Both the position numbers and the translations under genes were made by a program. A DNA stretch of 64,000 bases from Elusimicrobia bacterium GWA2_61_42 (GTDB lineage Bacteria > Elusimicrobiota > Elusimicrobia > Elusimicrobiales > UBA9959): the NCBI GenBank assembly GCA_001799615.1, contig MGTU01000023.1:2020-66019 (forward strand), written 5' to 3'. Position 1 is the stretch's first letter. Each line of letters opens with the position of its first letter. A model generated the notes under the pieces. The model saw only the letters and a list, made by a program, of their open reading frames with translations, was not told the origin of the DNA and did no database searches. Below, piece after piece: positions 7,590-51,680 of this stretch.

Positions 7590-7653
7590 GTCTTTTCCCT
7601 ATCTTGCGGAGTTTAGTCTGAAAGTTTTCAGGGCGCGGGCCTGCGGTATTTTT

Positions 7654-12050: not shown

Positions 12051-12075
12051 ACCGGCCGCAGGACGGGGCGCGCCG

Positions 12076-16100: not shown

Positions 16101-18829
16101 TTTACTACCAGGTCGTTCCCGGTGTTGGTCCAGGTCCTCGAAGCGAAATTGTACAGTTCCGTGGTCCTGACGGCGCCGGTGCCGCTGGTCCCGCCGGTTA
16201 TCAGCACGTTGCCGTTCTTAAGCAGCGTGGCGGTATGTTCCGCCCTGCCGCCGGTGGCCAGGTTGCCCACGGTGTTCCAGTAGGTGCTGCTGCTGATGAA
16301 AAGCTCCGAAGTATTGGAATAGCCGTTTATGGTGTCGCCGCCGGCCATCAGCACGTTGCCGTCCGGCAGCAGCGTGGCGGTATGGTTGGAACGGGCGAAA
16401 ACCATGGAGCTGACCATTATCCACTTGTCGGTGTCCGGGTAATAGATCTCGGCGTATTTTACGGAGTGGGTCGAGGAATTTATTTCGCCGCCGGCCGCCA
16501 GCACGCGGCCGTTGGGCAGCAGCGTGGCGGTATGCCTGGCGCGCGGGTAATTCATGGCGCCGGCCGGCTTCCAGGTCCTGGAGCCCATGTCGAACAGCTC
16601 GCAGGAGGCCAGCGTGGCGTTGCCGTCCGAGCCGCCGCAGGTCAGCGTTTTATTGTTGGGCAGGATGGTGCTGGTGTGGAAAGCGCGCTTGCCGGCCAGT
16701 TTGCCGGTTTCGGGCCACTTGGAATAGTTCTGGGAGATAAAGATGCCGGCGCCGGCTTCGGCGGTGAAAACCGACGCTCCGTTGCGGGCGCAGTCGTTGT
16801 CGGGGTCGGCTTCGCAGTTCCTGCCGCCCAGGATGACCGCGTCGGCGGCCGGGGTCAGCAGCGTGGACTGGTTGAAGACGGGATACAGCACCGGGCCGAA
16901 GCCCCATTTTACTTTCTCGGGGCTGTACTGCACGTTGTCGGCGAAGATCATTTCCCTGACCATGAAAGTGGAGGTGTCCACGGAATAGCCTACTTCCGAG
17001 AGGTCTATCAGGGTGGAAGTGTAGCTGGCCGACAGGGAGAGCCCGCTGACCATGCTGCCGCCTACGACGATGGCGGTGCCGCCGGCGCCCAGGGAGGTAG
17101 TGGTGGAATTGATAATGGTGCCGGCCAGGCTGCCGAAGGTCACGGAGTCGGTGACCGTGCCTTTGCCGGTAAGGGGATCGATGGAGGCGACGCCGCTGAA
17201 ATTCCCCGACCCGCCTGTCAGGGTGGCGTTCCAGAAGCCCAGGGAGTTTTCCACCGAGGCGTTGGTTATGGTAAGGACGCCGGCTATGGTGCCGCCGTTA
17301 TAGAGCGCCGGGACCTCGATGGTGACCTGGAGCGTGATATTGGAGGAGGCCGGCACCAGGGCCGCGGCTACGCTCTGGGGAAGTATCGGGTTAGGGTTGG
17401 GCGTTAAGGTGCCGCCCGTGGCCAGCTCGCTGTCGGAAGTAACGGCGGTAGGCTTGAAGACGGCGAGGCCGGTGGGATTGAGAAGGCTGAGGATGTCCTT
17501 GAAGCCGCCGGGGCCCACGCCGGTGGTGATCTTGCCCACCGGGGAACCGTCCACGGTGGCCGTGCTGTGGCCCAGGTAAATGCTGGCGTTGGCCACCGTG
17601 ATGGACGGCGAAGCGGAGTCCGGGGGGCCCGACAGGAAAAGGTCCGCGTCCACCAGGCGGCCGGATACGGGCCTGACCAGTTCGGTTTTCAGCAGGAAAG
17701 CTATTATGCTGGTGGGATCCACCGTGGCCGTGGTGATGGTGACGGCGGTGGCGTCCAGGCGGGAACCGCTCTCGAGTTCCAGGGTGGGCAGGAAAAAGGT
17801 GGGCGGGATATTGCCGTAGCCGCCGTACATGTGATGTTTGCCGTCCGGGGTGAGCACCGCGGAATGCCGGGAGACCCGGTACGGCATTACCTGGAATTCT
17901 TCGCCGGTAACGTACATCTTGGCGCCGCTGGGGGAAAAGATCTCGGCGCTGTCCAGGTAGCCTTTGTTGCCCGGGCGCTGGTTGGATACCATGCCGTGGT
18001 AGGTCTTGTACCAGTATTCCTCGGGCGAGTCTATCTTGTTGGTGCGGTTATAGCCGCCGGCGATCATGATGGTGCCGTTATTGAGCACCACGGCGGAATG
18101 GTCCGTGCGGCCCTGCGTAAGGTTGGAAGTCGTCTGCCATTCGCCGTTCTCGGGGTCGTAAATTTCGGTGGTGGGCAGGTAGGTGAAGGTAGCGGCGGCT
18201 ACGTCCCACCGGGTGCCGCCGGCTACGAAGACGCGGCCTTCGGAGATGGCGCTGGCCGAGTGGCCCAGGCGCTCGCTGCTCATGGGCTGCACCGCATCGA
18301 AAGTGCCCAGGGCGGGGGTAGCGGTGTTGGGGGTAAAAACCTCGCAGGTATTGGTTATGGTGGTGGGGCCCGTGCCGGTCTGGCCGCCGCAGATCAGGAC
18401 TTTGCCTGAATTGGAGCCTTTATTGATGAGGGTGGCGGTATGTCCCCCCCTCGCCGAGACCATGGGGTCCGTGACGGGGGTCCAGGCTTTTGTAAGCGGG
18501 TTATAGACCGCGCCGCTGTTCAGGGGCACGCCCGCGGCAAAGCCGCCTGTCACCAGCAGCATGCCGTTGCCCATCAGGGTGGCGGTATGGGAGGACCTGG
18601 CTATGGCCATGTCCGGGATCTTGCCGAAAGCGGCGGCCGAAGTGAAATAAATCTCCCCGGTAACTGTGGGCGCGTTGCCGGCGCCGGTAGCGCCGCCCAG
18701 CACTATGAAATTACCGTCGGGCAGCAGGGTGGTGGTGTGGCCGTGGCGGCCGAATTCAAGCGCGCCGGCCTCCGGCGTGAAGAACGCCAGGGCCAATAAG
18801 CATAAAGGAAGAGCCTTTCTAAAATTCAT
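13130..18829 (-). CDS. Giant secreted surface protein: two Kelch beta-propellers, FN3 repeats and a sorting-type C-terminal domain
   Basis: 1899-aa ORF. Signal peptide. About 13 Kelch blades (HTATLLPNGRVLAAGG-type repeats at about aa 25-345 and 655-1040). Repeated FN3-like modules at about aa 1185-1700 (W..... Y.V......). C-terminal about 85 aa (VYPNPF..LRIYTLSGDKVW..GVYLAVI..KLAV) resemble a T9SS/FlgD-Ig-type CTD. Confidence 0.8.
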   Translation of the reverse strand: MNFRKALPLCLLALAFFTPEAGALEFGRHGHTTTLLPDGNFIVLGGATGAGNAPTVTGEIYFTSAAAFGKIPDMAIARSSHTATLMGNGMLLVTGGFAAGVPLNSGAVYNPLTKAWTPVTDPMVSARGGHTATLINKGSNSGKVLICGGQTGTGPTTITNTCEVFTPNTATPALGTFDAVQPMSSERLGHSASAISEGRVFVAGGTRWDVAAATFTYLPTTEIYDPENGEWQTTSNLTQGRTDHSAVVLNNGTIMIAGGYNRTNKIDSPEEYWYKTYHGMVSNQRPGNKGYLDSAEIFSPSGAKMYVTGEEFQVMPYRVSRHSAVLTPDGKHHMYGGYGNIPPTFFLPTLELESGSRLDATAVTITTATVDPTSIIAFLLKTELVRPVSGRLVDADLFLSGPPDSASPSITVANASIYLGHSTATVDGSPVGKITTGVGPGGFKDILSLLNPTGLAVFKPTAVTSDSELATGGTLTPNPNPILPQSVAAALVPASSNITLQVTIEVPALYNGGTIAGVLTITNASVENSLGFWNATLTGGSGNFSGVASIDPLTGKGTVTDSVTFGSLAGTIINSTTTSLGAGGTAIVVGGSMVSGLSLSASYTSTLIDLSEVGYSVDTSTFMVREMIFADNVQYSPEKVKWGFGPVLYPVFNQSTLLTPAADAVILGGRNCEADPDNDCARNGASVFTAEAGAGIFISQNYSKWPETGKLAGKRAFHTSTILPNNKTLTCGGSDGNATLASCELFDMGSRTWKPAGAMNYPRARHTATLLPNGRVLAAGGEINSSTHSVKYAEIYYPDTDKWIMVSSMVFARSNHTATLLPDGNVLMAGGDTINGYSNTSELFISSSTYWNTVGNLATGGRAEHTATLLKNGNVLITGGTSGTGAVRTTELYNFASRTWTNTGNDLVVKRYRHTANLLMDGRVMVSGGTDGDGPMDTAEIYTGTQWYLTNTVPGSNKMLAKRSNHRSTLLPNGKLLVTGGEAPGLAYSLVEGYDVDFSTWQAQGETTNRVGHTTVLTSSCVLLAIGGWNGSEYLDTTEMIYYSYSPDGEGYPTQTPRLPVISTGPAIFDRGERVTLLSDTSSFHGITEASGGGAGSMNSSFHNPRIYLQQIDNPSGFLTDMTTRLYTTYGSPNTDWAKTVSSITFISPPGAGEMPYGWYHARIAANGQFSAGLPIQVSLPRPDKTPGIPTGSVLGISSISWNWTNGTVTGSADGYSLYSSSNNVFITTAAFVIGNTAFTQAGLQPNTAAAIKVNVYNVGGSGPLAESTTYYTLASTPSALTVTEASFTTAKLTWGSINSPGTMFEVSMCAGSNFTDPILISTPVPYYLSLTTTTVEVDRLSADVMYYFRVTAKNGAGISTQFSNVVSTLTVSSIGTLTGTALSSSSISWGWVAATGLDIFYQVYDIMGGTVTPVYLGSTTYTNYTQSGLLTNYPYKVAVRAVKINPVEVYGPTSYSSAVFTLAVPPSADPVNPFTEISTGSFTANWVSNGNSTWTVYAVEISSSDVYSSTGTKNLPTVGYSKNFPGLKASQRYFVKVSATNGDGITTDSVPLGSKYTWARVPTDVKPATISISGVTVTWSQNENSGETAYELRKTTGSFFGVELSTPIPFALLYTSSSHTMNGLLTSTTYYFDVTAMNGEGVLSARVQAVPAAFTTPGPIGAPAGSIGGTSDPSKLVTISGTLPNNRQVTLAVPAGSFATATSIAISSSISNACSYQVGSPLRPVEVAIFSENSLQPQEPVTLTLSYDSDESAIISANKARLVIARYNPVSGQCLPLETVINENSSPRTITATLNHFSVFQLMLRPVSTTLSDVLVYPNPFYTNRGNGFVTIANLPASAKLRIYTLSGDKVWEGTAATTGIIIWRGVNKAGHLVASGVYLAVIDSSAGKKVLKLAVER

Positions 18830-19668: not shown

Positions 19669-19741
19669 GGAGCGGGCGATGGGAATCGAACCCACGTCTA
19701 ATGCTTGGGAAGCACTCGTACTACCATTGTACGACGCCCGC
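19668..19741 (-). tRNA. tRNA-Gly (anticodon CCC), CCA encoded
   Basis: Minus strand: GCGGGCG TC GTAC AATGGTA GTAC G AGTGC TTCCCAA GCATT AGAC GTGGG TTCGATT CCCAT CGCCCGC T CCA. Full cloverleaf folds by hand, with a 7-nt anticodon loop and CCC at positions 34-36. Confidence 0.95.
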
Positions 19742-40731: not shown

Positions 40732-42399
40732 TTACCTGAAATAATAGTAGTGCTGCAGGCGCGTCAGCCCGGCCGCCGGGAACGGCGCGCAGCTGAGCCC
40801 GGTTACGGGAACGCCCAGCACCGCCTCCTGCCTGTGGTAATACTCGTCGTTGGAGGCCAGCACCGTCAATTCCCCGTTCGGGTTGGCTTCCACCGGCGAG
40901 TCCATCAGCAGCGGCGGGAAATGGGGCCGCGGGCTGTAGACCTTCGCGCCGGTGTCGGAATTGAGGGCCAGGTATTGCCCGTAGTAGGAGCTGGAGAATT
41001 TTTTATTGACGGCTTCGGTCGGGCTGAAGGTGACCGTCAGGGTGCAGGACTGGCCGGCCGGCAGGTTGGAGCCGGTGCAGGCGTCCCCTGTCACCCTGAA
41101 CGAGGCCGGCAGTTTCGCGGCGTCCAGCTTTACGGCGTACCAGTCCGAGCTGCCGGTATTGGTAACGCGCAGCACCTCGCTCATGCTGTAGCCTTCCGGC
41201 ACCATGCCGAAATCTATTTTATTCCCCCTGCCGTAGTTCGTCCCGCCCCAGTGGCTGTTCCACCAGGAGGTCCACGGCGAATATTTGGAGTTGCCCTTCA
41301 CTTCCATGTAGGACTGGTAGTAGAAAGCTCCCTCGTCGTTGCTGGGCACCTCGAAAACGGTGACGTATTCCTTGGCGGCGCGGGGAGAGAAGCGCAGGTT
41401 GAACGTGCAGCTTTTGCCCGGGGCCAGCGTCGCCGAGGCGCACTTGTTGTTCTCCAGGTAGAAGGGGGTGTCGTCGTCTATGTTCGCTATGCCGCCCAGG
41501 ACCAGCGGGGCGTCCCCGATGTTCATCACTATGATCTGCCTGGCGGCCGTCTCGTAAGTGTACAGGTTGCCGAAATCAATGGTGCGGGGCCAGACGTACG
41601 CCACAGGCGCCGGGGGCGGCTTTTGTTCCGTAGTGGCCTGCTTTATGGAGGCCGCGGCGGGAGGCGAGGATTCCGCGCGGTGGGAGCCGTAGGCTTCGGA
41701 GTTGAGGCCCGTTCCGCCGCCGCCGTTGCCGCCGCCGCCGCGGGCGGCGGAGCCTCCTCCGCTGGCAGAGCTTTCAGCCGCGCGGTTAGCCTCCTGCTGC
41801 TGGCGCGCCGCCGACCCGCCGTGCACGGCCGGGGCCGCCCCGGCTCCTGAAAAGCCGGAGGCGAAAGAAGGCGCCGCGCCGGCCACCAGCTGTTTGTCGC
41901 CGGCGGCGGACTGCAGCCGCGGCAGAGCCTGCCCGCTTCCCGCCGCCGCCTGCGGCTGGCCGGGGCGGGCTACAGGGTTAACGATGGTCCTGTTCCCGGA
42001 AGAAAACCTTTCCCCTGCCCCCGGGGCCTCGGGCGCCGAGTCGTATTTTATGGCGTGGTGCACCTGCCGCATGAATTCCTGCAGCTCCCTTTTATTTTTC
42101 GGTTTAAAAGCGCTGCGGACCCTGGGCGCGGCTTTGGCCGTTTCCGAAGCGTAGTCCTGGTTGGCTTTGCGGAACATCTCTATGGAGGAGCCGCCCTGGG
42201 AGGCACCCCGGGCCATCGGGTCGGTTCCCGGGGCGTAGTTGGGGCCGGAGCTGAATTTGACGTCCGCGGAGGAGGCGGAAACGGGGGTTTCCCGCGGGGA
42301 GCCCCCCACGAAGTAGCTGATGCCCACAGAGAAGGCGGCCGTCACCACGACCAGCGGCACCGCCGCCGCTTTCCAGGTTAAAGGGTTCCTGCCGTCCAT
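40732..42399 (-). CDS. Membrane-anchored protein with Ala/Gly/Ser/Pro-rich linker and two choice-of-anchor-D/ASH-like Ig domains
   Basis: 555-aa ORF. N-terminal TM (AAAVPLVVVTAAFSVGISYFV), about 230-aa low-complexity region, then IDFGNLY..VMNIGDAPLVLGGI..CASATLAPGKSCTFNLRFSP and a second C..L..G.SC.L.V.F.P module. Confidence 0.65.
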   Translation of the reverse strand: MDGRNPLTWKAAAVPLVVVTAAFSVGISYFVGGSPRETPVSASSADVKFSSGPNYAPGTDPMARGASQGGSSIEMFRKANQDYASETAKAAPRVRSAFKPKNKRELQEFMRQVHHAIKYDSAPEAPGAGERFSSGNRTIVNPVARPGQPQAAAGSGQALPRLQSAAGDKQLVAGAAPSFASGFSGAGAAPAVHGGSAARQQQEANRAAESSASGGGSAARGGGGNGGGGTGLNSEAYGSHRAESSPPAAASIKQATTEQKPPPAPVAYVWPRTIDFGNLYTYETAARQIIVMNIGDAPLVLGGIANIDDDTPFYLENNKCASATLAPGKSCTFNLRFSPRAAKEYVTVFEVPSNDEGAFYYQSYMEVKGNSKYSPWTSWWNSHWGGTNYGRGNKIDFGMVPEGYSMSEVLRVTNTGSSDWYAVKLDAAKLPASFRVTGDACTGSNLPAGQSCTLTVTFSPTEAVNKKFSSSYYGQYLALNSDTGAKVYSPRPHFPPLLMDSPVEANPNGELTVLASNDEYYHRQEAVLGVPVTGLSCAPFPAAGLTRLQHYYYFR

Positions 42400-42515
42400 A
42401 GAGCCTCCAGAGGATCCGCGGGTCTGCCGCTCATTTAAGTATACACCACGGATTCCCGGGTTTCAAGGCTTGCGCCGCTAAGCGGTGCGGGCCCCGTCTT
42501 TTTATTGTAAAATAA

Positions 42516-42830
42516 ATGCGCATGGGAATCTGGGATAACGCCTTTAAATTACCTGTTCAGCCGGAAGTCACGGCGGCGGAAAAAAAACTCCTGGACGCGC
42601 TGGCGGAGAAAGTGGTCAGGCGCAAAATGGGAGACATGGCCGCCATGGCCCTTGAGAGCACCCGGCCCATTCATAACCTGGGCGCCCAGAGCATAGTTTT
42701 TTTAAGCCCGATGCTCAGCATGGTTTTAAAGAAAGAAGAAGTTGACCGGTACGCCAAGATCCTGGAGAACTCCAAAGCGGTGAGTTACCTGATCGAGCGG
42801 CTGGAAGCGGACCCCGGGAAGAAAACCTGA
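42516..42830 (+). CDS. Hypothetical small protein (first gene of the plus-strand island)
   Basis: 104-aa ORF with helical mixed-charge composition and no motif recognised. A TAAAAT box at 42508-42513 lies 8 nt before the second ATG (42522), which may be the true, leaderless start. Confidence 0.55.
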   Translation: MRMGIWDNAFKLPVQPEVTAAEKKLLDALAEKVVRRKMGDMAAMALESTRPIHNLGAQSIVFLSPMLSMVLKKEEVDRYAKILENSKAVSYLIERLEADPGKKT

Positions 42831-42850
42831 CGATATCCAAGGAGAGCCAA

Positions 42851-44644
42851 ATGTCCAAGAAAGACCTTGAAATCATAATCGCGACAGACTGCGGCAGCAC
42901 CACCACCAAGGCCATACTGATAGAGAAGAAAGGCGATACCTACCGCCAGACTTTCCGCGGCGAGGCCCCTACCACCGTAGAGGCCCCCTTCGAGGACGTT
43001 ACCAAGGGCGTGCTCAACTCGATCACCGAGGTAGAGGAACTTTCCGGCCGCAAGATCCTCGACGGCGAAAGGATCATCACCCCGAATTCCGGCAACACCG
43101 GCGCCGATATTTACGTATCCACCTCCTCGGCCGGCGGCGGCCTGCAGATGATGGTGGCCGGTGCCGTGAAGGCCATGACCGGCGAATCCGCGCAGCGCTG
43201 CGCGCTGGGCGCCGGCGCCATCGTGATGGACGTGCTGGCCTCCAACGACGGCCGCGCCGACCACGAAAAGATAGAGCGCATCCGCCAGCTGCGCCCCGAC
43301 ATGATGCTGCTCTCAGGCGGCACGGACGGCGGCACCATCACCCACGTGGTGGAACTCGCGCAGTTCCTGAAGGCCGCGGACCCCAAGCCGCGCCTGGGCG
43401 CTTCCTACAAGCTGCCGGTGATCTACGCCGGCAACAACAAAGCTCACGCGCAGATAACGGAAATACTCGGCGCCAATACCGCCCTGATCATCACCGAGAA
43501 CCTGCGGCCCACGCTGGAGAAAGAGAACCTGATGCCGGCCCGCCACAAGATCCACGATATTTTCCTGGAGCACGTGATGCAGCAGGCCCCGGGCTACCCG
43601 CGCCTGATGAAGATGGTGGGCGCCCCCATCATGCCCACCCCGGCCGCCGTAGGCACGATGACCGAGAAGTTCGCCAAGGCCAATAACTTCAACGTGCTGG
43701 CCGTGGATATCGGCGGCGCCACCACCGACGTCTTTTCGGTGTTCTCCGGAGTTTTCAACCGCACCGTCAGCGCCAACCTGGGGATGAGCTACTCCATCTC
43801 CAACGTGATGGCGGAGGCCGGCCTGGCGAACATCCTGCGCTGGCTGCCTTTCGACATGGACGAGCAGGACCTCAGGAACCGCCTGAAGAACAAGATGATC
43901 CGCCCCACCACCATCCCGCAGACGGTGGAAGACCTGCAGATAGAGCACGCGGTGGCCCGCGAAGCGCTGCGCCTGGCTTTCGACCAGCACAAGGCGCTGG
44001 CCGTCGGCCTGAAAGGCGTGCAGCAGGAGCGCTCGATCTCCGACGCTTTCGACCAGACTTCCTCCGGGCAGAGCCTCATCAACGTGATGAAGCTCGACTA
44101 CGTGATAGGTTCGGGCGGCATCCTCGCGCATTCCCCCCGCCGCACGCAGTCCATGCTGATGATGATAGACGCCTACCAGCCCGAGGGCATCACCCGCATG
44201 GCCGTGGACTCCATCTTCATGATGCCGCACCTGGGCGTGCTGGCCCAGATCAGCGAGAAGGCCGCCCTGGACGTGTTCTACCACGACTGCCTGGTACGGC
44301 TGGGCACCTGCCTCGCCCCCAAGGGCCTGGCCAAGGAAGGCCAGCTTATTATGGAGTGGGAAGTGACCGGCTCCGACGGCAGCAGGCAGGCCGGGGAACT
44401 CCGCTTCGGGGACATCCTCCACGTGCCGTTCGCCGCGCCCAAGGCCAGGCTTGTGGCCAAGCCCGCCAAGGGCTTTGACATGGGCGCCGGCCCCGGCAAC
44501 CGGGCGGAAGCCGACATCGAGGGCGGCGTAGTGGGCCTGGTGCTGGACGGCCGCGGCCGCCCCTTCAACCTGGCCAAGGACCCGACCAAGCGCCGCGACG
44601 ACCTGAACAAATGGTACAAGGCGATGGAGATGTACCCGGTGTAG
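42851..44644 (+). CDS. GlmL/MutL-type (EutA-like) double-ASKHA ATPase-fold protein
   Basis: 597-aa ORF with AAGGAG RBS. Actin-fold signatures ATDCGSTTTKAILIEK, LAVDIGGATTDVFSV and VIGSGGILAHS. The pattern matches glutamate-mutase accessory GlmL / reactivase-type proteins. Confidence 0.7.
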   Translation: MSKKDLEIIIATDCGSTTTKAILIEKKGDTYRQTFRGEAPTTVEAPFEDVTKGVLNSITEVEELSGRKILDGERIITPNSGNTGADIYVSTSSAGGGLQMMVAGAVKAMTGESAQRCALGAGAIVMDVLASNDGRADHEKIERIRQLRPDMMLLSGGTDGGTITHVVELAQFLKAADPKPRLGASYKLPVIYAGNNKAHAQITEILGANTALIITENLRPTLEKENLMPARHKIHDIFLEHVMQQAPGYPRLMKMVGAPIMPTPAAVGTMTEKFAKANNFNVLAVDIGGATTDVFSVFSGVFNRTVSANLGMSYSISNVMAEAGLANILRWLPFDMDEQDLRNRLKNKMIRPTTIPQTVEDLQIEHAVAREALRLAFDQHKALAVGLKGVQQERSISDAFDQTSSGQSLINVMKLDYVIGSGGILAHSPRRTQSMLMMIDAYQPEGITRMAVDSIFMMPHLGVLAQISEKAALDVFYHDCLVRLGTCLAPKGLAKEGQLIMEWEVTGSDGSRQAGELRFGDILHVPFAAPKARLVAKPAKGFDMGAGPGNRAEADIEGGVVGLVLDGRGRPFNLAKDPTKRRDDLNKWYKAMEMYPV

Positions 44645-44681
44645 TGACTGCTCGATAATATTTTTTGGAGGACATAAAATT

Positions 44682-45806
44682 ATGGCTCACGCGTATACAC
44701 CCGGACTTAAAGTCATGCCCTGCACGCTGCTTAAGAAAAAAAGGCTGCTGCCCATCCCCGGCAAAGTGCTGGCCGCCCTGGACCAGCAGGTCGACTCGCT
44801 CGACGTGGTGGCCCAGACCGAACTGCCCGGCAAGGTTTTCTCCGTCAACGTGGCGAACCGCCTGGCCGTCGGCCCCGACGAGATACAGGGCTTCATGCTC
44901 AAGGCGGAGGGCGATCCCGTTAAGAAGGGCGACATTATCGCCGAGAATAAGCCTTTCCTGAAATGGTTCAAGACCTCGGTGGAGTCGCCCGTGGACGGCA
45001 CCGTGGAAGCCATCTCCTTTATAACCGGCCAGGTGCTGCTCCGGGAGCCGCCGAAAGTCCTGCCTATAAAAGCCTACGTGAAAGGTAAAGTGGTGGAGGT
45101 CACGCCCAATTTCGGCGTTACCATCGAGGCGGAAGGCACGTTCATCCAGGGCATTTTCGGCATAGGTGGCGAGACCAACGGCGAGATCTGCGTGGCCGTC
45201 TCCAGCCCCGACGAGGACCTGCAGCCCGAGGCCCTCAAGGAAACGCACAAAGGCAAGATCCTGATAGGCGGCAAGCACGCCAGCCTGGCCACGATCAAGC
45301 GCGCCATAGAACTGGGCGTCAACGCCATAGTGGTGGGCGGCATCCACGACCGCGACCTCCGGCAGCTGCTGGGCTACGACATCGGCGTGGCCGTGACCGG
45401 CAGCGAGCAGCTGGGCGTCACCGTCATCATCACGGAAGGCTTCGGCATGATCCCCATGGCCGAGTATACTTTCAAGCTGCTTTCCTCCCGCAACGGCGAG
45501 AAGGCCTCCGTGTCCGGCGCCACGCAGATCCGCGCCGGCGTCATGCGCCCGGAGATCATCGTGCCCGGCTTCCCCAAGAACGTGACGGAGTGCAAGAAGG
45601 ACCAGGGGCGCGGCTGGATAGAACCCGGCGACCCGATCCGCATCATCCGCGAACCGCATTTCGGCGTGATAGGCACGGTCAAGTCCCTGCCCCCGGAACT
45701 CACCGTCATCGGCAGCGAGTCCCACGCCCGCGTGCTGGAAGTCACGCTGGACGGCGGCGAGGTCATAGTTATCCCCCGCGCCAATATCGAAGTGCTGGAG
45801 AAATAG
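44682..45806 (+). CDS. Hypothetical protein with barrel-sandwich (lipoyl-like) N-terminal region
   Basis: 374-aa ORF with GGAGGA RBS. Hairpin motifs GDPVKKGDIIAE and SPVDGTVEAI, but no biotin/lipoyl Lys motif. Central Gly-rich alpha/beta segment (GKILIGGKHASLATIKRAIELGVNAIVVGG) and a beta-rich C-terminus. Confidence 0.6.
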   Translation: MAHAYTPGLKVMPCTLLKKKRLLPIPGKVLAALDQQVDSLDVVAQTELPGKVFSVNVANRLAVGPDEIQGFMLKAEGDPVKKGDIIAENKPFLKWFKTSVESPVDGTVEAISFITGQVLLREPPKVLPIKAYVKGKVVEVTPNFGVTIEAEGTFIQGIFGIGGETNGEICVAVSSPDEDLQPEALKETHKGKILIGGKHASLATIKRAIELGVNAIVVGGIHDRDLRQLLGYDIGVAVTGSEQLGVTVIITEGFGMIPMAEYTFKLLSSRNGEKASVSGATQIRAGVMRPEIIVPGFPKNVTECKKDQGRGWIEPGDPIRIIREPHFGVIGTVKSLPPELTVIGSESHARVLEVTLDGGEVIVIPRANIEVLEK

Positions 45807-45865
45807 CTTTCGGCGGCGGCGAGCGACGGGCGGCTGGCCGCTATCGCTCGCCGCTTACTTTTGTC

Positions 45866-48031
45866 ATGGCAAAAAAGAACAAGAAGGAACCAGGCAAGGC
45901 CCGGGACGTAGAGGCGGCCGGCTCGCGCTTTCCCGGCTGGCTGGCCTGGGCGGCGTTCGGCCTCTGGGTCTTCTGGGTCTTTAAGAATTACCTGTCGAAA
46001 CTTCCCCCCGACCTTAACTCGCTGTTCGTCCTGCTCGCTCCCGGCCAGTATTTTTCTTCCGGCCTCCTCTCCGCCCTGCCCGGGCACGCGGCCGCACTGG
46101 CCGCCGGCCTGGCCTTCCTGCTGGCCGCCGCCGGCCTGGGCCGGTTCCTGCTGGTGAGCCTGCTGAAAGCGGGCCCGTTCAGCGCTTTGGAGGAGATAGT
46201 TTTTTCGGCGGCGCTGGGCCTGGCGGCTTTCGCGCACGCCGTGCTGGCCCTGGCGGCCGGCGGGTTCCTTTACCGGTGGCCCGTGCTGGCGCTGCTGGCC
46301 GTATCCGCGGGGCTGGGCGTCTTCTCGCTGAAGTCCTCGCCCCCGGCGCCGCAGGCCCAGGAGCCGTTCCGGCCGGACTTCCCGGCCTTCCTGGCTTTTA
46401 CGCTGCTGGCGGCCGCGCTGCTGCTGGGCCTGGCCGGGGCGCTCAGCCCCGAGATCTTTTACGATTCGCTGGTCTACCACCTGGCCGTTCCCAATTTTTA
46501 CGTCATTAAACACGGCCTGGCGGACATGCCGTATAACCTTTACTCCAACCTTTTCCTGCTGCACGGGATGCTCTATTCAGCGGGCCTGCTGCTGAAAGAC
46601 GAAATGGTGCCCAAGCTGATCAACTACGCGGCCGGCGTCCTGAGCGTGGCCGCGGTGCTGGGGCTGGGCCGCAGGTATTTCACGGCCAGGGCCGGCCTCT
46701 GGGCCGCGCTGATCTTTTATACCGTGGCGCACGCGCTGCTGGCCGCCTGGTCCTCCGGCACGGAGTCCCTGCTTACGCTTTTCTCGCTGTGCGCCCTGGC
46801 CGCGGCCCTCCGCCACGAGCCCGGCGAGAAAAAATTCCTGGTCCTCAGCGCCTTCCTCGCCGGCTGCGGCATGGCGGTGAAGTCCACCGGCCTTTTCTCC
46901 GCCGCGGGCGTCGGCCTGGTGCTGCTGTACCGCGGCCGCTCCAGCCCCGGGGCGGCGCTGCGCTCGGCGCTGCTTTTTACCCTGGTGGCGGCGCTGCCCG
47001 TGCTGCCCTGGCTGGTCAAGAACCAGGTTTACCGGCATAATCCTTTTTTCCCCTTCATGACTTCGGTCTTCGGCGTGCCCGCCAACGCGGACGCCGTCAA
47101 GATAAATAATTTTATGGGAGAAACCAGGCAGATCGGGGCCGTGGAATTAAAGCCGTGGCTGCTGCATCCCTGGAAGATCACGATGGGCGAGATCGGCAAC
47201 TCGCAGTATTTTACGCCGCTTTTCCTGGCCCTGCTGCCGCTGCTTTTCCTGCTGCCGGCTTCGGGCGGAACGGCGCCGTTCTGGATCTATTTTCTTTCCG
47301 GCTGGCTGCTCTGGTCCTTCGCCTCTACCATGGTGCGCTTCCTGATGCCGGCCTACCCGGCCGCCGCGCTGCTTATCGCGGCCGCCCTGGAGGGCAAGGG
47401 GCAGCGGGCGCTGCGCCGCGCGCTTTCCTACGTCACGCTGGCCTCCTGCGCGCTGGGCCTGTACTGGGCCGGGCTGATCTTCTACTCGCAGGGGCGCTGG
47501 AAGCCCGTGCTGGGCCTGGTCTCCAGGACCGATTACCTTTCCAATACGCAGCCCACCTACCCTTACAGCCATTACGCGGCCATAGAGTTCATAAATCAAA
47601 AGCTGCCGGCCGGCGCCAAAACGCTGATCATAGGCGACGGCAGGAGTTTCTATTTTAAGAAGGATTTCGTCGTGAGCTCCGTCTTCGACAAGACCCCGAT
47701 AGTGGAGTACGCGGCCGCCTCCCGCGGCGGCGAGGAACTTTACGCCCGGCTGCGCGCGGAAGGCATAACGCATTTGCTGATAAACGCGGCCGAGGCCATA
47801 AAGCTGCAGGGCTACGGCGTCCTGTACTGGGACGCGCGGGCGCGCGGCGTGTTCGACGAGTTCTGGGCGAGCCACGCCGTCGAGGTTTTCGGGCGCGACG
47901 AGACCCAGGGCGGCAGGTTCCTCAACCGCGTCGCGGTGTACGAGATAGCCCAAAAGCTCCCCCGGGGGACGCCGCCCGCTTTCAACGTTATGAAAGAGGT
48001 CATCATGAGGAATATAGAGGCGGGCAGGTGA
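45866..48031 (+). CDS. Polytopic membrane protein with GT-C (PMT/ArnT-like) glycosyltransferase architecture
   Basis: 721 aa from ATG 45866; the track ORF starts at 45590 inside the previous gene. Lys-rich N-terminus, at least 11 hydrophobic helices, early-loop acidic motif PEIFYDSLVYH, and an about 230-aa soluble C-terminal domain. Confidence 0.6.
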   Translation: MAKKNKKEPGKARDVEAAGSRFPGWLAWAAFGLWVFWVFKNYLSKLPPDLNSLFVLLAPGQYFSSGLLSALPGHAAALAAGLAFLLAAAGLGRFLLVSLLKAGPFSALEEIVFSAALGLAAFAHAVLALAAGGFLYRWPVLALLAVSAGLGVFSLKSSPPAPQAQEPFRPDFPAFLAFTLLAAALLLGLAGALSPEIFYDSLVYHLAVPNFYVIKHGLADMPYNLYSNLFLLHGMLYSAGLLLKDEMVPKLINYAAGVLSVAAVLGLGRRYFTARAGLWAALIFYTVAHALLAAWSSGTESLLTLFSLCALAAALRHEPGEKKFLVLSAFLAGCGMAVKSTGLFSAAGVGLVLLYRGRSSPGAALRSALLFTLVAALPVLPWLVKNQVYRHNPFFPFMTSVFGVPANADAVKINNFMGETRQIGAVELKPWLLHPWKITMGEIGNSQYFTPLFLALLPLLFLLPASGGTAPFWIYFLSGWLLWSFASTMVRFLMPAYPAAALLIAAALEGKGQRALRRALSYVTLASCALGLYWAGLIFYSQGRWKPVLGLVSRTDYLSNTQPTYPYSHYAAIEFINQKLPAGAKTLIIGDGRSFYFKKDFVVSSVFDKTPIVEYAAASRGGEELYARLRAEGITHLLINAAEAIKLQGYGVLYWDARARGVFDEFWASHAVEVFGRDETQGGRFLNRVAVYEIAQKLPRGTPPAFNVMKEVIMRNIEAGR

Positions 48032-48057
48032 GCCCGGGCCCGCGGCCGGGCCTTGCG

Positions 48058-48090
48058 GACCGGAGGCTGAAACCCTCCGGTTTTCTCTTG
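48058..48090 (+). terminator. Putative intrinsic terminator (or attenuator) inside the island
   Basis: CCGGAGG-ctgaaac-CCTCCGG (48060-48080), followed by TTTTCTCTT. Lies 29 nt after the stop of the GT-C-like gene. Confidence 0.55.
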
Positions 48091-48116
48091 CCTGAAAAAT
48101 CCATAAAGTGTATATT
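48088..48116 (+). promoter_or_regulatory. Putative internal promoter for the four-gene membrane module
   Basis: TTGCCT (48088-48093), 17 nt, TATATT (48111-48116). ATG 48128 follows 11 nt later with no Shine-Dalgarno sequence. Confidence 0.45.
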
Positions 48117-48127
48117 ATTAGACAGTT

Positions 48128-49363
48128 ATGATTAAAACCAAAGTAATCACCCTTATTGCTTTCATGTTATTCGCGGCCGGCAGCGCCTTCGCCGCTAAAC
48201 CGGCGCCGGCTATCGACGGGTTCGCCGCCCTGGATATGCCTTACGACGTCGGCAACGCGGCGGTCCTCAGGTGGCCTGCCAATCCCGCCGACACCGACGA
48301 TACCTCTTACGTGGTCTACGTCTCCACCCACGAAACCGGCGGGTGGCTGGAGGCCGACCGGTTCGCCGCCGCCGCGAAAACCGGCAAGGACATCGAACTC
48401 CCTTTCTGGGCCTGGAACGGCTCCGCCGCGGAGCACGCCGTAAAGATCGAGCTTAATAACCTTTTCGGAGAGAGCCTGCCCAGTTCCGTTTTCCAGTTCC
48501 GGGTGACGGCAGAAAAGAACAAGAAGGTCATCGCCGAGTCGGCTGTCGTGTCCGTTATGCCGGTGGGCAACTGGTTCCGGCTTGACCGCCTCAATAACCT
48601 TATCCTGCTCATCGTCCTCATTATTATCTTCTTCTGGGCGGTGTCCCACGCCAAGCGCAAGGGCCTGTTCATCCGCCGCATAGCCGGCCTGGACGCCATC
48701 GACGAGGCCATCGGCCGCGCCACCGAAATGGGCAAGCCCATCTTCTACGTGCCCGGCATCGGTTCCATGGGGTCCATCTCCACCATCGCTTCCGCGTTCA
48801 TCCTGGGCGAGGTTTCCAAAAAGGTAGCCCAGTACGATTCCCAGATCAAGGTCCCCCATTACGACCCCATCGTCATGACCGTCTGTAAAGAGATCGTCAA
48901 ACAGTCCTATATGGAAGCCGGCCGCCCGGATTCCTACCGCGAAGACATCAACCAGTTCGTCAGCGCGGACCAGTTCTCTTACGCGGCCTCGGTGGACGGC
49001 ATGATCTCGCGCGAAAAACCCGCCGCCTGCTTCTACATGGGCTACTTCATGGCGGAGTCCCTGCTGCTGGCCGAAGTGGGCGCCACCTCCGGCGCCATCC
49101 AGATAGCCGGCACCGACGTGGAGCACCAGCTGCCCTTCTTCTTCACCGCCTGCGACTACACCCTGATAGGCGAAGAGCTTTACGCCGCGGGCGCCTACCT
49201 CTCCAAGGAGCCCATGCTGCTCAGCGCCCTCAAGGTGCAGGACTTCGGCAAGCTGATCGTCATGGTCTCGGTTTTCTTCGGAATGATCCTGGTGGTGCTG
49301 GGCGCGAAGCTCGGCTGGACCGATTTCGTCCAGGGCCTGCTCCACCTGTTCAAAGGCTACTAA
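48128..49363 (+). CDS. Hypothetical bitopic/tritopic membrane protein (ectodomain + cytoplasmic domain)
   Basis: 411-aa ORF. Signal/anchor ITLIAFMLFAAGSAFA, about 130-aa beta-rich ectodomain (VLRWPANP..YVVYVS..FQFRVTA, FN3-like), TM LILLIVLIIIFFWAV, about 210-aa cytoplasmic domain, C-terminal TM. No family recognised. Confidence 0.6.
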   Translation: MIKTKVITLIAFMLFAAGSAFAAKPAPAIDGFAALDMPYDVGNAAVLRWPANPADTDDTSYVVYVSTHETGGWLEADRFAAAAKTGKDIELPFWAWNGSAAEHAVKIELNNLFGESLPSSVFQFRVTAEKNKKVIAESAVVSVMPVGNWFRLDRLNNLILLIVLIIIFFWAVSHAKRKGLFIRRIAGLDAIDEAIGRATEMGKPIFYVPGIGSMGSISTIASAFILGEVSKKVAQYDSQIKVPHYDPIVMTVCKEIVKQSYMEAGRPDSYREDINQFVSADQFSYAASVDGMISREKPAACFYMGYFMAESLLLAEVGATSGAIQIAGTDVEHQLPFFFTACDYTLIGEELYAAGAYLSKEPMLLSALKVQDFGKLIVMVSVFFGMILVVLGAKLGWTDFVQGLLHLFKGY

Positions 49364-49366
49364 CTT

Positions 49367-50035
49367 ATGAAACTGATAAAAAAACATATACCTTTAGCCA
49401 TAGTGATGGTCACCGGCGTCCTGACGCTGGTGTCCTATTACGTTCCTAACAAGCTGTCCGTCAACTACATCGAGACCCTGAGCCAGTGGGAAAATATCGT
49501 GGTGGCCTTCGCGTTCCTGCTGGGGCTCATCAGCCTGTTCTTCTCCCACTACAACAAGATCTCCAGGAAGGCGGACGGCTGGGGCTACAGCGTGTTCGTC
49601 TTCGTGGGTTTCCTGGCGATGGTGCTGCCCGCCTACCTCAGCCACGGCAAGCAGATGACCGACGCGGGCCTTACGCCGCTGGGCTGGTCTTTCAAATTCA
49701 TCTATAACGCCCTCTCCGGCACCATGTTCGCGGTGCTGGCTTTCTACATCGTCTCCACCGCCTACAGGTCGTTCAGGATAAAATCCATGCAGGCTTTCGT
49801 CCTGTTCGTGGCGGCCTTCATCCTGATCCTCGGCAAGGTCCCGCTGGGCCAGATAATCTGGGATTCCGTGCTGGGCTGGACGGGCCAGGGCGTTTCGGAC
49901 GTCATAGAGTGGATCATGCAGGTCCCCGCCGTGGCCGGCAAGCGCGGCATCATGATCGGCATCTCCATCGGCGCCATCGTGACCTCGCTCAAGATAATCT
50001 TCGGCATCGAGAAACAGTATATGGGGAAGGACTAG
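49367..50035 (+). CDS. Hypothetical polytopic membrane protein (about 6 TM)
   Basis: 222-aa ORF starting 3 nt after the previous stop. Six hydrophobic helices. No family recognised. Confidence 0.6.
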   Translation: MKLIKKHIPLAIVMVTGVLTLVSYYVPNKLSVNYIETLSQWENIVVAFAFLLGLISLFFSHYNKISRKADGWGYSVFVFVGFLAMVLPAYLSHGKQMTDAGLTPLGWSFKFIYNALSGTMFAVLAFYIVSTAYRSFRIKSMQAFVLFVAAFILILGKVPLGQIIWDSVLGWTGQGVSDVIEWIMQVPAVAGKRGIMIGISIGAIVTSLKIIFGIEKQYMGKD

Positions 50036-50039
50036 ACAT

Positions 50040-50864
50040 ATGCTCAAGGAACAACTTCAGAAATTCTTCAAGATAGACAGGCGCTGGATCTTCCTGCTGC
50101 TGGCAATCACGCTGTTCGTCCCGATCATGAAGCCTATCGGCCTGCCTAACAAGACCATCTCCCCCGCCACCAAGAGGGTCTATGAGAGCATCGAGAAACT
50201 GCCCGCCGGTTCTTTCGTGCTTTTCTCGCTCGACTACGACCCCTCGACCAGGCCCGAACTGCACCCCATGGCCACGGCGCTGCTCCGGCACGCTTTCTCG
50301 AAGAACCTGCGCGTTGGCGTGGTCACCTATATCGCCGGCTCCACCGGCCTGATAGAGGAGATCTTTGCCAAGGTCCCCAAGGAATATAATAAGAAGGACG
50401 GGGTCGATTACACGATCCTGCCGTACCAGCCCAATGTGCTGGCGGTCATGACGCAGATGTCCTCGGACCTCTACGGCATCTACTCCCAGGACCGCAACGG
50501 CAACCCGATCATCGACATGCCCGTAATGAAGGGCGTGAAGAACTACAGGGACATGTCGCTGGTGGTAAGCGTTACCGGCACCGCGCTGCTGGATTACTGG
50601 GTGGCCTACGTGGGCGACAAGTACGGCGTGCCGGTGGCCGGCGGCGTTACCGCCATCAGCCAGCCCGGCTACGGGCCCTACCTGCAGACCAACCAGCTGA
50701 AAGGCCTCATCGGCGGCATGAAAGGCGCCGCGGAATACGAGTCGCTGATCAAGCAGCCGGGTAAAGGGACTTCGGGCATAGACGCCCTTAACCTCGCGCA
50801 CCTGCTGGTGCTGGCGCTGATCCTGACTTCCAATATCATTCTTCTGTTCGTAAAGTATTTTTGA
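50040..50864 (+). CDS. Hypothetical membrane protein (TM - soluble domain - TM)
   Basis: 274-aa ORF starting 4 nt after the previous stop. N-terminal TM WIFLLLAITLFVPIM, about 220-aa soluble domain, C-terminal TM LLVLALILTSNIILLFV. No family recognised. Confidence 0.6.
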   Translation: MLKEQLQKFFKIDRRWIFLLLAITLFVPIMKPIGLPNKTISPATKRVYESIEKLPAGSFVLFSLDYDPSTRPELHPMATALLRHAFSKNLRVGVVTYIAGSTGLIEEIFAKVPKEYNKKDGVDYTILPYQPNVLAVMTQMSSDLYGIYSQDRNGNPIIDMPVMKGVKNYRDMSLVVSVTGTALLDYWVAYVGDKYGVPVAGGVTAISQPGYGPYLQTNQLKGLIGGMKGAAEYESLIKQPGKGTSGIDALNLAHLLVLALILTSNIILLFVKYF

Positions 50865-50894
50865 TAGGTTTTATAACTTTCTTTTGAGGTGATT

Positions 50895-51626
50895 ATGTCA
50901 GAAACATGGCTTATTATCGGCGGTTGGGTTTCCGCGGGGCTCACGATCTTCCTGTTCAGCTTCCTTTACAAGGACAACCCGTTCTTTAAAATAGCCGAGC
51001 ACCTGTACCTCGGCGCCGGCATGGGCTGGCTGTTCCAGGTTTCGGTCACCAACGTGTGGCTGCCGAAGATCTGGGAGCCCGTGATGAACGGCGAGCTGCT
51101 GGTGATAATCCCCTCCATCCTGGGTATTTCGCTGCTGACCCAGTTCATCCCCAGGATCTCCTGGATCTCCCGCTACGGCTTCACCTTCATGATGGGCTAC
51201 GGGTCCGGCCTGGCCATCCCCGCCGGGTTGTCCACCGACTTCCTCAGCCAGATCGGCGGCACGATAAAGCCTTTCTCGATGCTGGCCTCCATGACCCCGT
51301 TCAATATCTTCGGGTCGCTGCTGGTGGCGGGCGGCACTATCTGCGTGCTCTTCTACTTCTTTTTCTCGGTGGAGCATAAAGGCCACCTGCAGAAGATCTC
51401 CAACGTGGGCATTTACTTCCTGATGATCTACTTCGGCGCGGCGTTCGGCAACACCGTCATGGCCCGCTTCTCGCTGCTGTACGGACGCTTCGACGACCTG
51501 TACACCTACTCCGCGGTAAAGTATTTCTACGCCACCCAGGTCATCCTGGTAGCCATGGTCGTCTACTTTATCCTGCACTCCTTCTTCACGAAGAATAAGA
51601 AAGACGTTTCCGAGGAAGCCGCCTAG
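50895..51626 (+). CDS. Hypothetical polytopic membrane protein (about 7 TM)
   Basis: 243 aa from ATG 50895 (GAGGTGA RBS just upstream); the track begins at GTG 50889. About seven hydrophobic helices. No family recognised. Followed by a strong terminator. Confidence 0.6.
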   Translation: MSETWLIIGGWVSAGLTIFLFSFLYKDNPFFKIAEHLYLGAGMGWLFQVSVTNVWLPKIWEPVMNGELLVIIPSILGISLLTQFIPRISWISRYGFTFMMGYGSGLAIPAGLSTDFLSQIGGTIKPFSMLASMTPFNIFGSLLVAGGTICVLFYFFFSVEHKGHLQKISNVGIYFLMIYFGAAFGNTVMARFSLLYGRFDDLYTYSAVKYFYATQVILVAMVVYFILHSFFTKNKKDVSEEAA

Positions 51627-51642
51627 CGCGGGGCGCAAGCCG

Positions 51643-51680
51643 AAAAAGGGCGGGCCGGAATATCCGGCCCGCCCTTTTTT
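51643..51680. terminator. Bidirectional intrinsic terminator
   Basis: AAAAA-GGGCGGGCCGGA-ata-TCCGGCCCGCCC-TTTTTT: a perfect 12-bp GC-rich stem (51648-51674) between convergent genes. Confidence 0.85.

Follow-up and report, generated by a model that had tools for sequence, protein, structure and literature searches.

What does an actin-fold ATPase that resembles the reactivating proteins of glutamate mutase do next to a row of membrane protein genes? This question is raised by an island of eight genes (here g1 to g8; public locus tags A2X35_06740 to 06775) in a 64,000-nucleotide stretch of DNA from Elusimicrobia bacterium GWA2_61_42 (contig MGTU01000023.1, positions 2,020 to 66,019), which is called the window in the following. 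An earlier inspection of the letters alone (the sequence-only reading) had proposed that the eight genes constitute an undescribed system in which the ATPase is coupled to five membrane proteins. When the open reading frames (ORFs) were read again, all eight were recovered as co-directional plus-strand ORFs between 42516 and 51626 (window coordinates), separated by 20, 37, 59, 96, 3, 4, and 30 nucleotides (nt), which agrees with the range of 3 to 96 nt given before. In a gene map based on the GC content at third codon positions (GC3), the island stood out as the one long series of plus-strand genes in a window whose genes lie mostly on the minus strand, and its ORFs showed GC3 values of 0.70 to 0.89; the island is a genuine operon-like block. 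The g3 ORF failed the filters of this map, and its reality rests on homologues that are 48 to 91% identical. The island genes were considered real because each has homologues in other phyla, with identities of 30 to 90%. As set out below, the conserved part of the island consists of seven genes in two modules, a cytoplasmic module (g1, g2, and g3) and a membrane module (g5, g6, g7, and g8).

To survey the distribution of the system, one genome per GTDB species was scanned with three motifs of DUF6754, the Pfam domain of g5, and relatives were confirmed in at least 593 species genomes. The best 80 of these genome hits were inspected and the set was extended to about 82 to 84 loci (L001 to L084), in which the presence of genes was judged by tblastn and simple ORF calling. 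The 82 loci examined cover about 14 phyla. The best 80 belong to Elusimicrobiota, Nitrospirota (many of them Nitrospira), Methylomirabilota, Planctomycetota (Scalindua, Brocadiaceae, and Phycisphaerae), Gemmatimonadota, Latescibacterota, Poribacteria, WOR-3, Sumerlaeota/BRC1, Binatota, Edwardsbacteria, Ignavibacteriales, Myxococcales, and CSSED10-310, and a Handelsmanbacteria contig represents one further lineage with the cluster. When the eight window proteins were searched against these loci by tblastn, the order g1-g2-g3-g5-g6-g7-g8 was seen across phyla. The genes g6, g7, and g8 came after g5 in 69 of the 69 loci that have at least 4 kb of downstream sequence; counted separately, g6 followed g5 in 79 of 83 loci, while g7 was present in 75 and g8 in 71 of the 83. 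The pair g2/g3 adjoined the membrane genes in 57 of 71 informative loci, which represent about ten named phyla plus unclassified metagenome-assembled genomes (MAGs). All-against-all clustering of the ORFs of 82 loci revealed no further family common to most of them. Gene linkage in other genomes, whose lack the sequence-only reading had named as a reason to give up its proposal, is strongly conserved.

The two modules remain neighbours even where their arrangement has changed: L001 has them as convergent operons, L080 begins with the membrane module, and in L071 g2 is transcribed divergently from g5. Adjacency that survives such rearrangement points to functional coupling rather than to inherited gene order. 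The membrane module can also be multiplied or stand alone. Two tandem copies were found in L058 and L070, a second g5 follows g3 in L080, and the WOR-3 locus L069 (6312-17092) carries three tandem g5-g6-g7-g8 sets with no g1 to g3 within 10 kb. All six informative loci of Poribacteria and all three of WOR-3 have membrane modules without g1 to g3, with absence defined as within 10 kb of g5 to g8 and not genome-wide; such modules were also seen in Edwardsbacteria and CSSED10-310. Sequence identity across phyla was highest for g2 (62 to 68%), followed by g3 (about 50%) and the membrane proteins (35 to 45%). In the Nitrospirota MAG locus L014, in-frame stops lie in the tblastn-delimited g2 (6811-8613) and g7 (12066-12737), and the g8 of L010 (4330-5070) contains in-frame stops as well; these may represent pseudogenes, frameshifts, or assembly errors.

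The gene that does not belong to the conserved unit is g4 (45866-48031, 721 amino acids [aa]), whose ATG start lies inside a longer ORF that begins with a GTG at 45590. Its assignment to glycosyltransferases of the GT-C type (PMT/ArnT-like) held: the protein matched PMT_2 with 30.4 bits against a cutoff of 26.1, contains at least 10 hydrophobic segments, and thus shares both the domain match and the architecture of many transmembrane (TM) helices with this class. The homologue in L001 carries DUF8201 in addition to PMT_2. However, tblastn matches to g4 were confined to the Elusimicrobia loci L001 to L005, L007, and L008; the gene was found neither in about 70 loci from other phyla nor in the Elusimicrobia loci L006 and L009. 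Since g4 occurs in Elusimicrobia loci only, the conserved system comprises seven genes instead of the eight that had been proposed, and g4 is a lineage-specific insert outside the core. The idea that a polytopic transferase is part of the machine was therefore dropped, as g4 is missing from the cluster of every other phylum.

Within the cytoplasmic module, the ATPase g2 (42851-44644, 597 aa) is the protein with the clearest relatives. The actin-fold motifs that had been quoted for it (ATDCGSTTTKAIL, LAVDIGGATTDVFSV, and GSGGILAHS) are present in the translation, and the protein matched the Pfam family MutL (PF13941) with an E value of 2.8e-127, its residues 9 to 479 covering profile positions 1 to 449 of 450. 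Among 22 orthologues from at least nine phyla, DCGSTTTK (residues 13 to 20), DIGGATTD (286 to 293), and GSGG (420 to 423) are invariant and the mean column identity is 73%. The phosphate-1, phosphate-2, and adenosine motifs are hence conserved in a duplicated fold, which places g2 among the ASKHA proteins. Hydantoinase_A was hit as well and, with 24.6 bits, exceeded its Pfam cutoff, and further hits to BcrAD_BadFG, EutA, and MreB-like_C stayed below theirs. A search with the single sequence found no relative among PDB sequences. Thus, g2 resembles GlmL/MutL, and by extension the EutA/DdrA reactivases, in its double ASKHA fold and nucleotide-binding motifs, but it differs by a conserved domain of about 120 additional residues at the C terminus (480 to 597), which lies outside the MutL model. 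It scored below the cutoffs of the GlmL equivalog NF040745 (234.5 versus 475 bits), the Or-4 model NF040744 (211.6 versus 600 bits), and the subfamily TIGR01319 (167.5 versus 204 bits), and it is only 27 to 30% identical to the annotated GlmL proteins of Peptoclostridium, Fusobacterium, Escherichia coli, and Prevotella.

The gene neighbourhood tells the same proteins apart. Genuine GlmL matches in plasmid records adjoin glmS, whereas g2 was never found beside glmS, glmE, or a gene for a B12 enzyme in the loci examined and is linked instead to g1, g3, and the DUF6754 module. The earlier observation that no mutase, lyase, or B12 gene lies near the island was borne out for the window around g1 to g8. 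In addition, clustering of the 82 loci gave no recurrent ORF family for glmS/glmE or oraS/oraE, and no mutase or B12 gene was among the Pfam-annotated genes called in L001, L002, L083, and L084. The label of a reactivase- or chaperone-type ATPase expresses no more than a family resemblance, given the scores below the GlmL cutoffs and the low identity to genuine GlmL. As judged by profile scores and motifs, g2 is a distinct orthologous group within the MutL/GlmL Pfam family and not an accessory protein of glutamate mutase. NCBI records (P0400, P0422, P0445, P0468, and P0494) label g2 orthologues 'methylaspartate mutase', 'glutamate mutase L', or 'ornithine aminomutase'. These labels look over-transferred because g2 fails the GlmL cutoffs and has no mutase neighbour; the g2 group is likely affected by systematic misannotation in public records.

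The two companions of g2 are smaller and belong to no named family. The first gene of the module, g1 (42516-42830, 104 aa), encodes a cytoplasmic protein of 102 to 104 aa with one hydrophobic stretch, for which no Pfam or NCBIfam family was found. Its start may lie at 42522 because relatives conserve ATGGGAATCTGG; a 102-aa form exists in public data. In about 50 loci from many phyla, a g1 homologue immediately precedes g2, and a Nitrospira g1 used as the query finds g1 in nearly all g2-bearing loci. The third protein, g3 (44682-45806, 374 aa), is soluble and has three domains: a beta barrel-sandwich at the N terminus, an alpha/beta domain in the middle, and a KOW/SH3-like domain at the C terminus. 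It is 48 to 57% identical across phyla. Its description as a barrel-sandwich protein was confirmed by weak hits to RnfC_N, NQRA_N, and Biotin_lipoyl, all below the Pfam cutoffs; sub-threshold barrel-sandwich and KOW hits recur in most orthologues, and no Pfam family covers g3. A function as a biotin or lipoyl carrier was ruled out, given that the lysine at ENKP varies (K, R, E, Q, S, and T) among 24 orthologues. AlphaFold2 (AF2) models were built for g3 and g5 only, from shallow alignments that each represent one or two phyla. The g3 model reached a predicted local distance difference test (pLDDT) value of 81.8, and Foldseek comparison with the PDB gave domain-level matches only; searches of PDB sequences with the single sequence and with a profile found no relative of g3. 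The N-terminal tail of g3 (MAHxYTPGL) is nearly invariant, yet it is unstructured in the model.

The membrane module is built around g5 (48128-49363, 411 aa), whose sequence is 100% identical to its public GWA2_61_42 record. Contrary to the view that this protein matches nothing recognizable, it carries DUF6754 (PF20539; E = 5e-112), with 373.6 bits against a gathering score of 27 over residues 147 to 393. The predicted layout comprises a signal or anchor helix, a periplasmic FN3-like domain (residues ~33 to 143), a TM helix (152 to 177), the cytoplasmic DUF6754 domain, and a C-terminal TM segment (362 to 395). The DUF6754 family forms 2145 clusters at 50% identity (E ≤ 1e-3). Its C-terminal ~250 aa are always conserved at about 50% identity, and the portion before them differs in length between ~30 and more than 1000 aa, the long versions consisting of FN3 repeats or of sequence with no Pfam match. 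Conservation peaks at g5 residues 308 to 368 (window ~49049-49231), where E310, E316, Q325, T329, Q334, C342-D343-Y344, and E349-E350 are invariant. The AF2 model of g5 had a pLDDT of 67.8, with values below 50 in this most conserved stretch and a cytoplasmic alpha/beta region preceding it; to go by the model, the stretch may need partner subunits or the membrane in order to fold. Foldseek matched nothing but the FN3 domain, and PDB sequences searched with g5 as a single sequence gave no relative. An assignment of DUF6754 by structure was given up on account of the moderate model, the low values in the conserved core, and the FN3-only matches.

The other three membrane proteins likewise lack a family. 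The 222-aa g6 (49367-50035) contains about six TM helices. The 274-aa g7 (50040-50864) is bitopic; its two TM helices, located at the termini, enclose a domain of ~210 aa that is predicted to be periplasmic on the basis of the positive-inside rule. The 243-aa g8 (50895-51626; alternative GTG start at 50889) is polytopic, with five to seven TM helices. No relation between g6 and g8 was detectable (hhalign probability of 0.4%), and profiles of g5, g6, g7, and g8 found nothing related among PDB sequences; none of the seven core proteins has a PDB entry related to it in sequence. The claim that the partner proteins fit no characterized transporter, secretion, or biosynthesis family stood up in searches of Pfam, NCBIfam, PADLOC, and PDB sequences, and Foldseek comparison of the modelled g3 and g5 with the PDB likewise gave no characterized family. 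As had been supposed, neither Pfam nor NCBIfam has a family for the 104-, 374-, 222-, 274-, and 243-aa proteins (g1, g3, g6, g7, and g8). By the same two collections, none of g1 to g8 contains an ABC_tran or a BPD_transp/ABC2-type permease domain, and none matched a family of flippases, polymerases, or lipid carriers.

Genes for uptake systems recur near the core. Genes of Opp-type ATP-binding cassette (ABC) importers, that is, SBP_bac_5, two BPD_transp_1 permeases, and two ABC_tran+oligo_HPY ATPases, are interleaved with it in 12 of 82 loci (L006-L008, L045, L047, L050, L052, L053, L055, L062, L063, and L068), in four arrangements and four phyla. They lie between g4 and g5 in the Elusimicrobia loci L006 to L008. 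In the Latescibacterota loci L052 and L068, the substrate-binding protein (SBP) and the permeases are found between g2 and g3 and the ATPases after g8; L053 has the Opp ATPases only, with no canonical permease within the locus stretch. The BRC1 locus L047 carries the SBP and ATPases after g8 and no permeases, and in five loci (L045, L050, L055, L062, and L063) the SBP gene precedes the core and a gene for a SusC-like TonB receptor follows g8. These Opp/Dpp-type importers are neighbours of the system and not homologues of it, and none is present in the window. A membrane protein of ~141 to 146 aa without a family is encoded immediately 5′ of g1 in 14 loci (e.g., L045:6234-6659) of Latescibacterota, Gemmatimonadota, Sumerlaeota, Phycisphaerae, and the Handelsmanbacteria type; it may be an eighth, lineage-restricted component, and no homologue was seen in the window. 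In 22 Nitrospirota loci (e.g., L014:13687-14937 and L084:17060-18301), the gene right after g8, in the same orientation, is Memo-like (AmmeMemoRadiSam system protein B type). Only some of the Nitrospira loci have KDO, PgsA, and PlsY genes upstream, and this neighbourhood was dropped as a general clue for that reason; fatty acid synthesis genes are found upstream in the Handelsmanbacteria contig.

From the observed gene content, conservation, and modularity, together with the ATPase motifs, the predicted topology, and the lack of known relatives, we hypothesized that the core encodes an ATP-driven inner-membrane machine for transport or mechanotransmission, in which g1 to g3 drive g5 to g8. We assign this interpretation a probability of about 40%. 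In such a machine, g5 to g8 would assemble into a single inner-membrane complex exposed on either side of the membrane, and g2, with g3 and g1, would dock on the cytoplasmic DUF6754 domain. ATP binding and hydrolysis by g2 would power the membrane complex, and the output, we infer, would be that either a substrate is carried across the membrane or conformational work is passed to the periplasmic domains. The setting would be nutrient uptake and the envelope, as hinted at by the Opp-type ABC, TonB receptor, and envelope lipid genes nearby. The pattern is motor-like in that the ATPase, with its invariant phosphate and adenosine motifs, is the best-conserved part, and the predicted topologies of g5 and g7, which would place domains in the periplasm, are in favour as well. 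By analogy, multiplied or detached membrane modules resemble the situation in transporters that share an ATPase, and the recurring uptake genes also fit a motor.

Known machines offer partial parallels. In MacB, LolCDE, and FtsEX mechanotransmission systems and in shared-ATPase or energy-coupling factor (ECF) transporters, the cytoplasmic ATPase is the best-conserved part, as it is here; periplasmic domains on membrane subunits, several modules per genome, and modules located apart from the ATPase are further likenesses in what is a functional analogy. They differ in that g2 has an actin/Hsp70 fold and not an ABC fold, and in that g5 to g8 gave no match to their transmembrane domains, coupling helices, or other ABC components. 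The PilM-PilN-PilO-PilP and GspL-GspM platforms are similar in layout only, with an ASKHA protein and small membrane proteins that have periplasmic domains; the conserved N-terminal tail of g3 could by analogy act as a ligand, as PilN does for PilM. However, no sequence relation between these platforms and the core was detected, pilus or secretion ATPase, secretin, and pilin genes are missing, and PilM belongs to another ASKHA branch than g2, whose ATPase motifs are intact.

Several observations weigh against the proposed machine. The association with Opp and TonB receptor genes is limited to 12 of 82 loci, and the other neighbours differ by phylum (Memo-like, KDO/PgsA/PlsY, or fatty acid synthesis genes). 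The g5 model is weak exactly in the most conserved stretch, so that the predicted DUF6754 architecture is unsettled. The physical link between g2/g3 and g5 to g8 is suggested by the arrangement of genes, and the occurrence of the membrane module by itself in four lineages could mean that the ATPase may not be needed. Moreover, the characterized ASKHA proteins of the GlmL/hydantoinase branch are enzymes or putative reactivases, and we know of none that acts as a transport motor. We put forward only tentatively the broader view that the ASKHA ATPase with g1 and g3 is the motor of an unrecognized class of inner-membrane machine that is ancient and widespread in non-proteobacterial diderms (Nitrospirota, Planctomycetota, Elusimicrobiota, Latescibacterota, Gemmatimonadota, and others). 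Such a machine would be a new primary active transporter or periplasm-directed mechanotransducer, built only from families without a characterized member; this view as a whole is possible but doubtful.

Other explanations account for part of the same evidence. In the main rival, the membrane proteins g5 to g8 could be an ATP-independent channel or secondary transporter, with g2, assisted by g3 and g1, as an ATP-dependent enzyme that traps or processes the imported compound, by analogy with glycerol kinase and GlpF or with ATP-dependent ring opening of the hydantoinase/oxoprolinase type. The position of g2 in the hydantoinase/GlmL branch and its weak Hydantoinase_A hits fit such a pairing, as do the membrane modules without adjacent g1 to g3 in Poribacteria and WOR-3 and the SBP_bac_5, Opp, and TonB receptor genes; a cross-phylum identity of 62 to 68% is also typical of central metabolic enzymes. 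On the other hand, a hydantoinase B-type partner is missing, no match of g3 points to an enzyme, catabolic genes do not recur near the cluster, and a variable FN3 stalk as in g5 would be odd for a simple permease. We consider this explanation unlikely, albeit worth keeping in mind. A membrane-anchored cytoskeleton or scaffold is rather improbable. Here, filaments or oligomers of g2 (compare MreB, FtsA, PilM, and MamK) would be tethered via g3 and g1 to a g5-to-g8 platform, whose periplasmic stalks would organize the envelope. Polymer-forming actins share the ASKHA fold and a conservation as high as the 73% mean column identity of g2, the g3 tail could be a peptide ligand as PilN is for PilM, and the periplasmic portion of g5, made of FN3 repeats or coiled-coil-like sequence, is variable in length. 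Nevertheless, no cell division or cell shape genes recur nearby, to our knowledge no member of the GlmL/hydantoinase branch polymerizes, and tandem triplication of the membrane module is better suited to substrate diversity.

The sequence-only reading had suggested an envelope biogenesis or energy-coupled membrane machine. Taken as envelope biogenesis, this would be a glycan or lipid machine with the GT-C protein g4 as an integral catalytic part. The presence of g4 within the operon here and in several other Elusimicrobia, the KDO, PgsA, and PlsY genes of some Nitrospira, and the fatty acid genes of the Handelsmanbacteria contig agree with it. Because g4 is limited to Elusimicrobia, and is lacking even in L006 and L009, this interpretation rests on a lineage-specific add-on; with the lipid gene neighbourhood restricted to part of one genus and no flippase, polymerase, or lipid-carrier family detected, we regard it as improbable. 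Very improbable is a genuine GlmL/EutA-type reactivase that serves a B12 enzyme encoded elsewhere, in which case the adjacency to membrane genes would be meaningless. The MutL match and the public names methylaspartate mutase and glutamate mutase L would be in its favour, but the scores below equivalog and subfamily cutoffs, the low identity to real GlmL, and the lack of mutase or B12 genes in the loci examined are not; furthermore, searches of the window and of 15 related loci gave no cobalamin or other riboswitch, nor any other Rfam element in those loci, and the linkage of g2 to g3 and g5 to g8 holds across about ten named phyla. Finally, a divergent Nqr/Rnf-like complex was considered, with g3 as NqrA/RnfC, g5 as NqrB/RnfD, g7 as NqrC/RnfG, and g6 plus g8 as NqrD/E. 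The number and sizes of the subunits are superficially alike, g3 residues 54 to 113 gave the weak NQRA_N and RnfC_N hits, and g3 contains an SGAT-like motif. PDB sequences are expected to include Nqr and Rnf structures; profiles of g3, g5, g6, g7, and g8 gave no Nqr/Rnf hit among them at E ≤ 10, and the 50 best listed Foldseek hits of the g3 model included no NqrA or RnfC, and no whole-protein match to either. No Pfam hit pointed to NqrB/RnfD, NqrC/RnfG, or the NqrD/E pair. As g6 and g8 are not paralogues, and flavin or Fe-S motifs, NqrF/RnfB-type genes, and the other Nqr/Rnf subunits are missing, this candidate was rejected after the PDB profile searches, the g3 Foldseek comparison, and the g6-g8 profile comparison, and we give it next to no weight.

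The island is framed by two hairpins. At its downstream end, the perfect 12-bp stem that had been described was confirmed as an intrinsic terminator (51648-51674), composed of the stem arm GGGCGGGCCGGA (51648-51659), the loop ATA, and the arm TCCGGCCCGCCC (51663-51674), with 12 perfect pairs. It is flanked by AAAAA and TTTTTT and therefore could work in both directions; read in this way, it closes both the operon and the convergent gene for a peptidyl-prolyl isomerase (PPIase). Upstream, the 116-nt divergent intergenic region contains an imperfect hairpin or palindrome of 12 pairs (42467-42493, plus strand) followed by a T-run. Its fold is stronger than that of shuffled sequences (minimum free energy z = -3.06), and the region matched no Rfam family. 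Just 5′ of the g1 start lies TGTAAAAT (42506-42513), which resembles an extended -10 box; g1 might be leaderless because this element is only 3 to 9 nt from two candidate g1 ATGs. The hairpin and TGTAAAAT may thus constitute an operator or promoter region. A conserved 5′ leader RNA was ruled out, as the hairpin is not kept in L004 or L009. The possibility of a defence island or mobile element was ruled out as well: none of the eight proteins matched a PADLOC model at E ≤ 0.01 (no hits), DUF6754 was not found among 72,556 plasmid records, and the GC content is unremarkable.

The remainder of the window contains a single tRNA gene (19671-19741, minus strand), which is its sole Rfam match, and several other minus-strand genes. 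The gene divergent from g1 (40732-42399) encodes a 555-aa protein in which an N-terminal TM helix and long low-complexity Gly/Ala/Ser sequence are combined with two Ig-like domains of the HYDIN/ASH type; a 555-aa gene without a Pfam hit occupies the same divergent position in L001, an Elusimicrobia locus with 64% identity, the comparison being one of position and not of sequence. Positions 13130-18829 hold a giant ORF of 1899 aa in which many Kelch repeats occur together with three FN3 domains and glyoxal oxidase-like segments; its product is probably a secreted or surface beta-propeller protein. Between 51697 and 63321 lie genes for a SurA-like PPIase and an MscS-type channel, followed by an apparent complex I/group 4 NiFe hydrogenase-like (Mbh/Mrp-type) operon, which was called in the window by synteny with the Pfam-annotated L001 only.

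No published description of the system was found, and the databases searched offered no rival family assignment, so that its description as undescribed was upheld; the literature likewise yielded nothing relevant on DUF6754/PF20539, PF13941, DUF8201/PF26626, or GlmL/ASKHA proteins in the carrier phyla. Five of the seven core proteins (g1, g3, g6, g7, and g8) are without a Pfam family, and DUF6754 is named yet uncharacterized. Recognizable relatives exist only for g2 (outside GlmL proper), for the FN3 domain of g5, and for the Elusimicrobia-only g4. The system, whose function we infer, is new as a whole and belongs neither to the PilM/PilNOP platforms nor to the mechanotransmission or shared-ATPase ABC systems. 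Five new families (g1, g3, g6, g7, and g8) can be defined from the present alignments. For metabolic reconstructions, the mutase label on g2 feeds in false predictions of glutamate fermentation. A seven-gene system present in hundreds of species, among them nitrite oxidizers, anammox bacteria, Methylomirabilis, and sponge and groundwater lineages, with an ATPase conserved like a housekeeping protein, would represent a missing piece of cell biology for bacteria that are poorly covered by knowledge based on E. coli. If the ATPase indeed drives the membrane complex, the system would constitute a new energy-coupling principle for transport or envelope mechanics.

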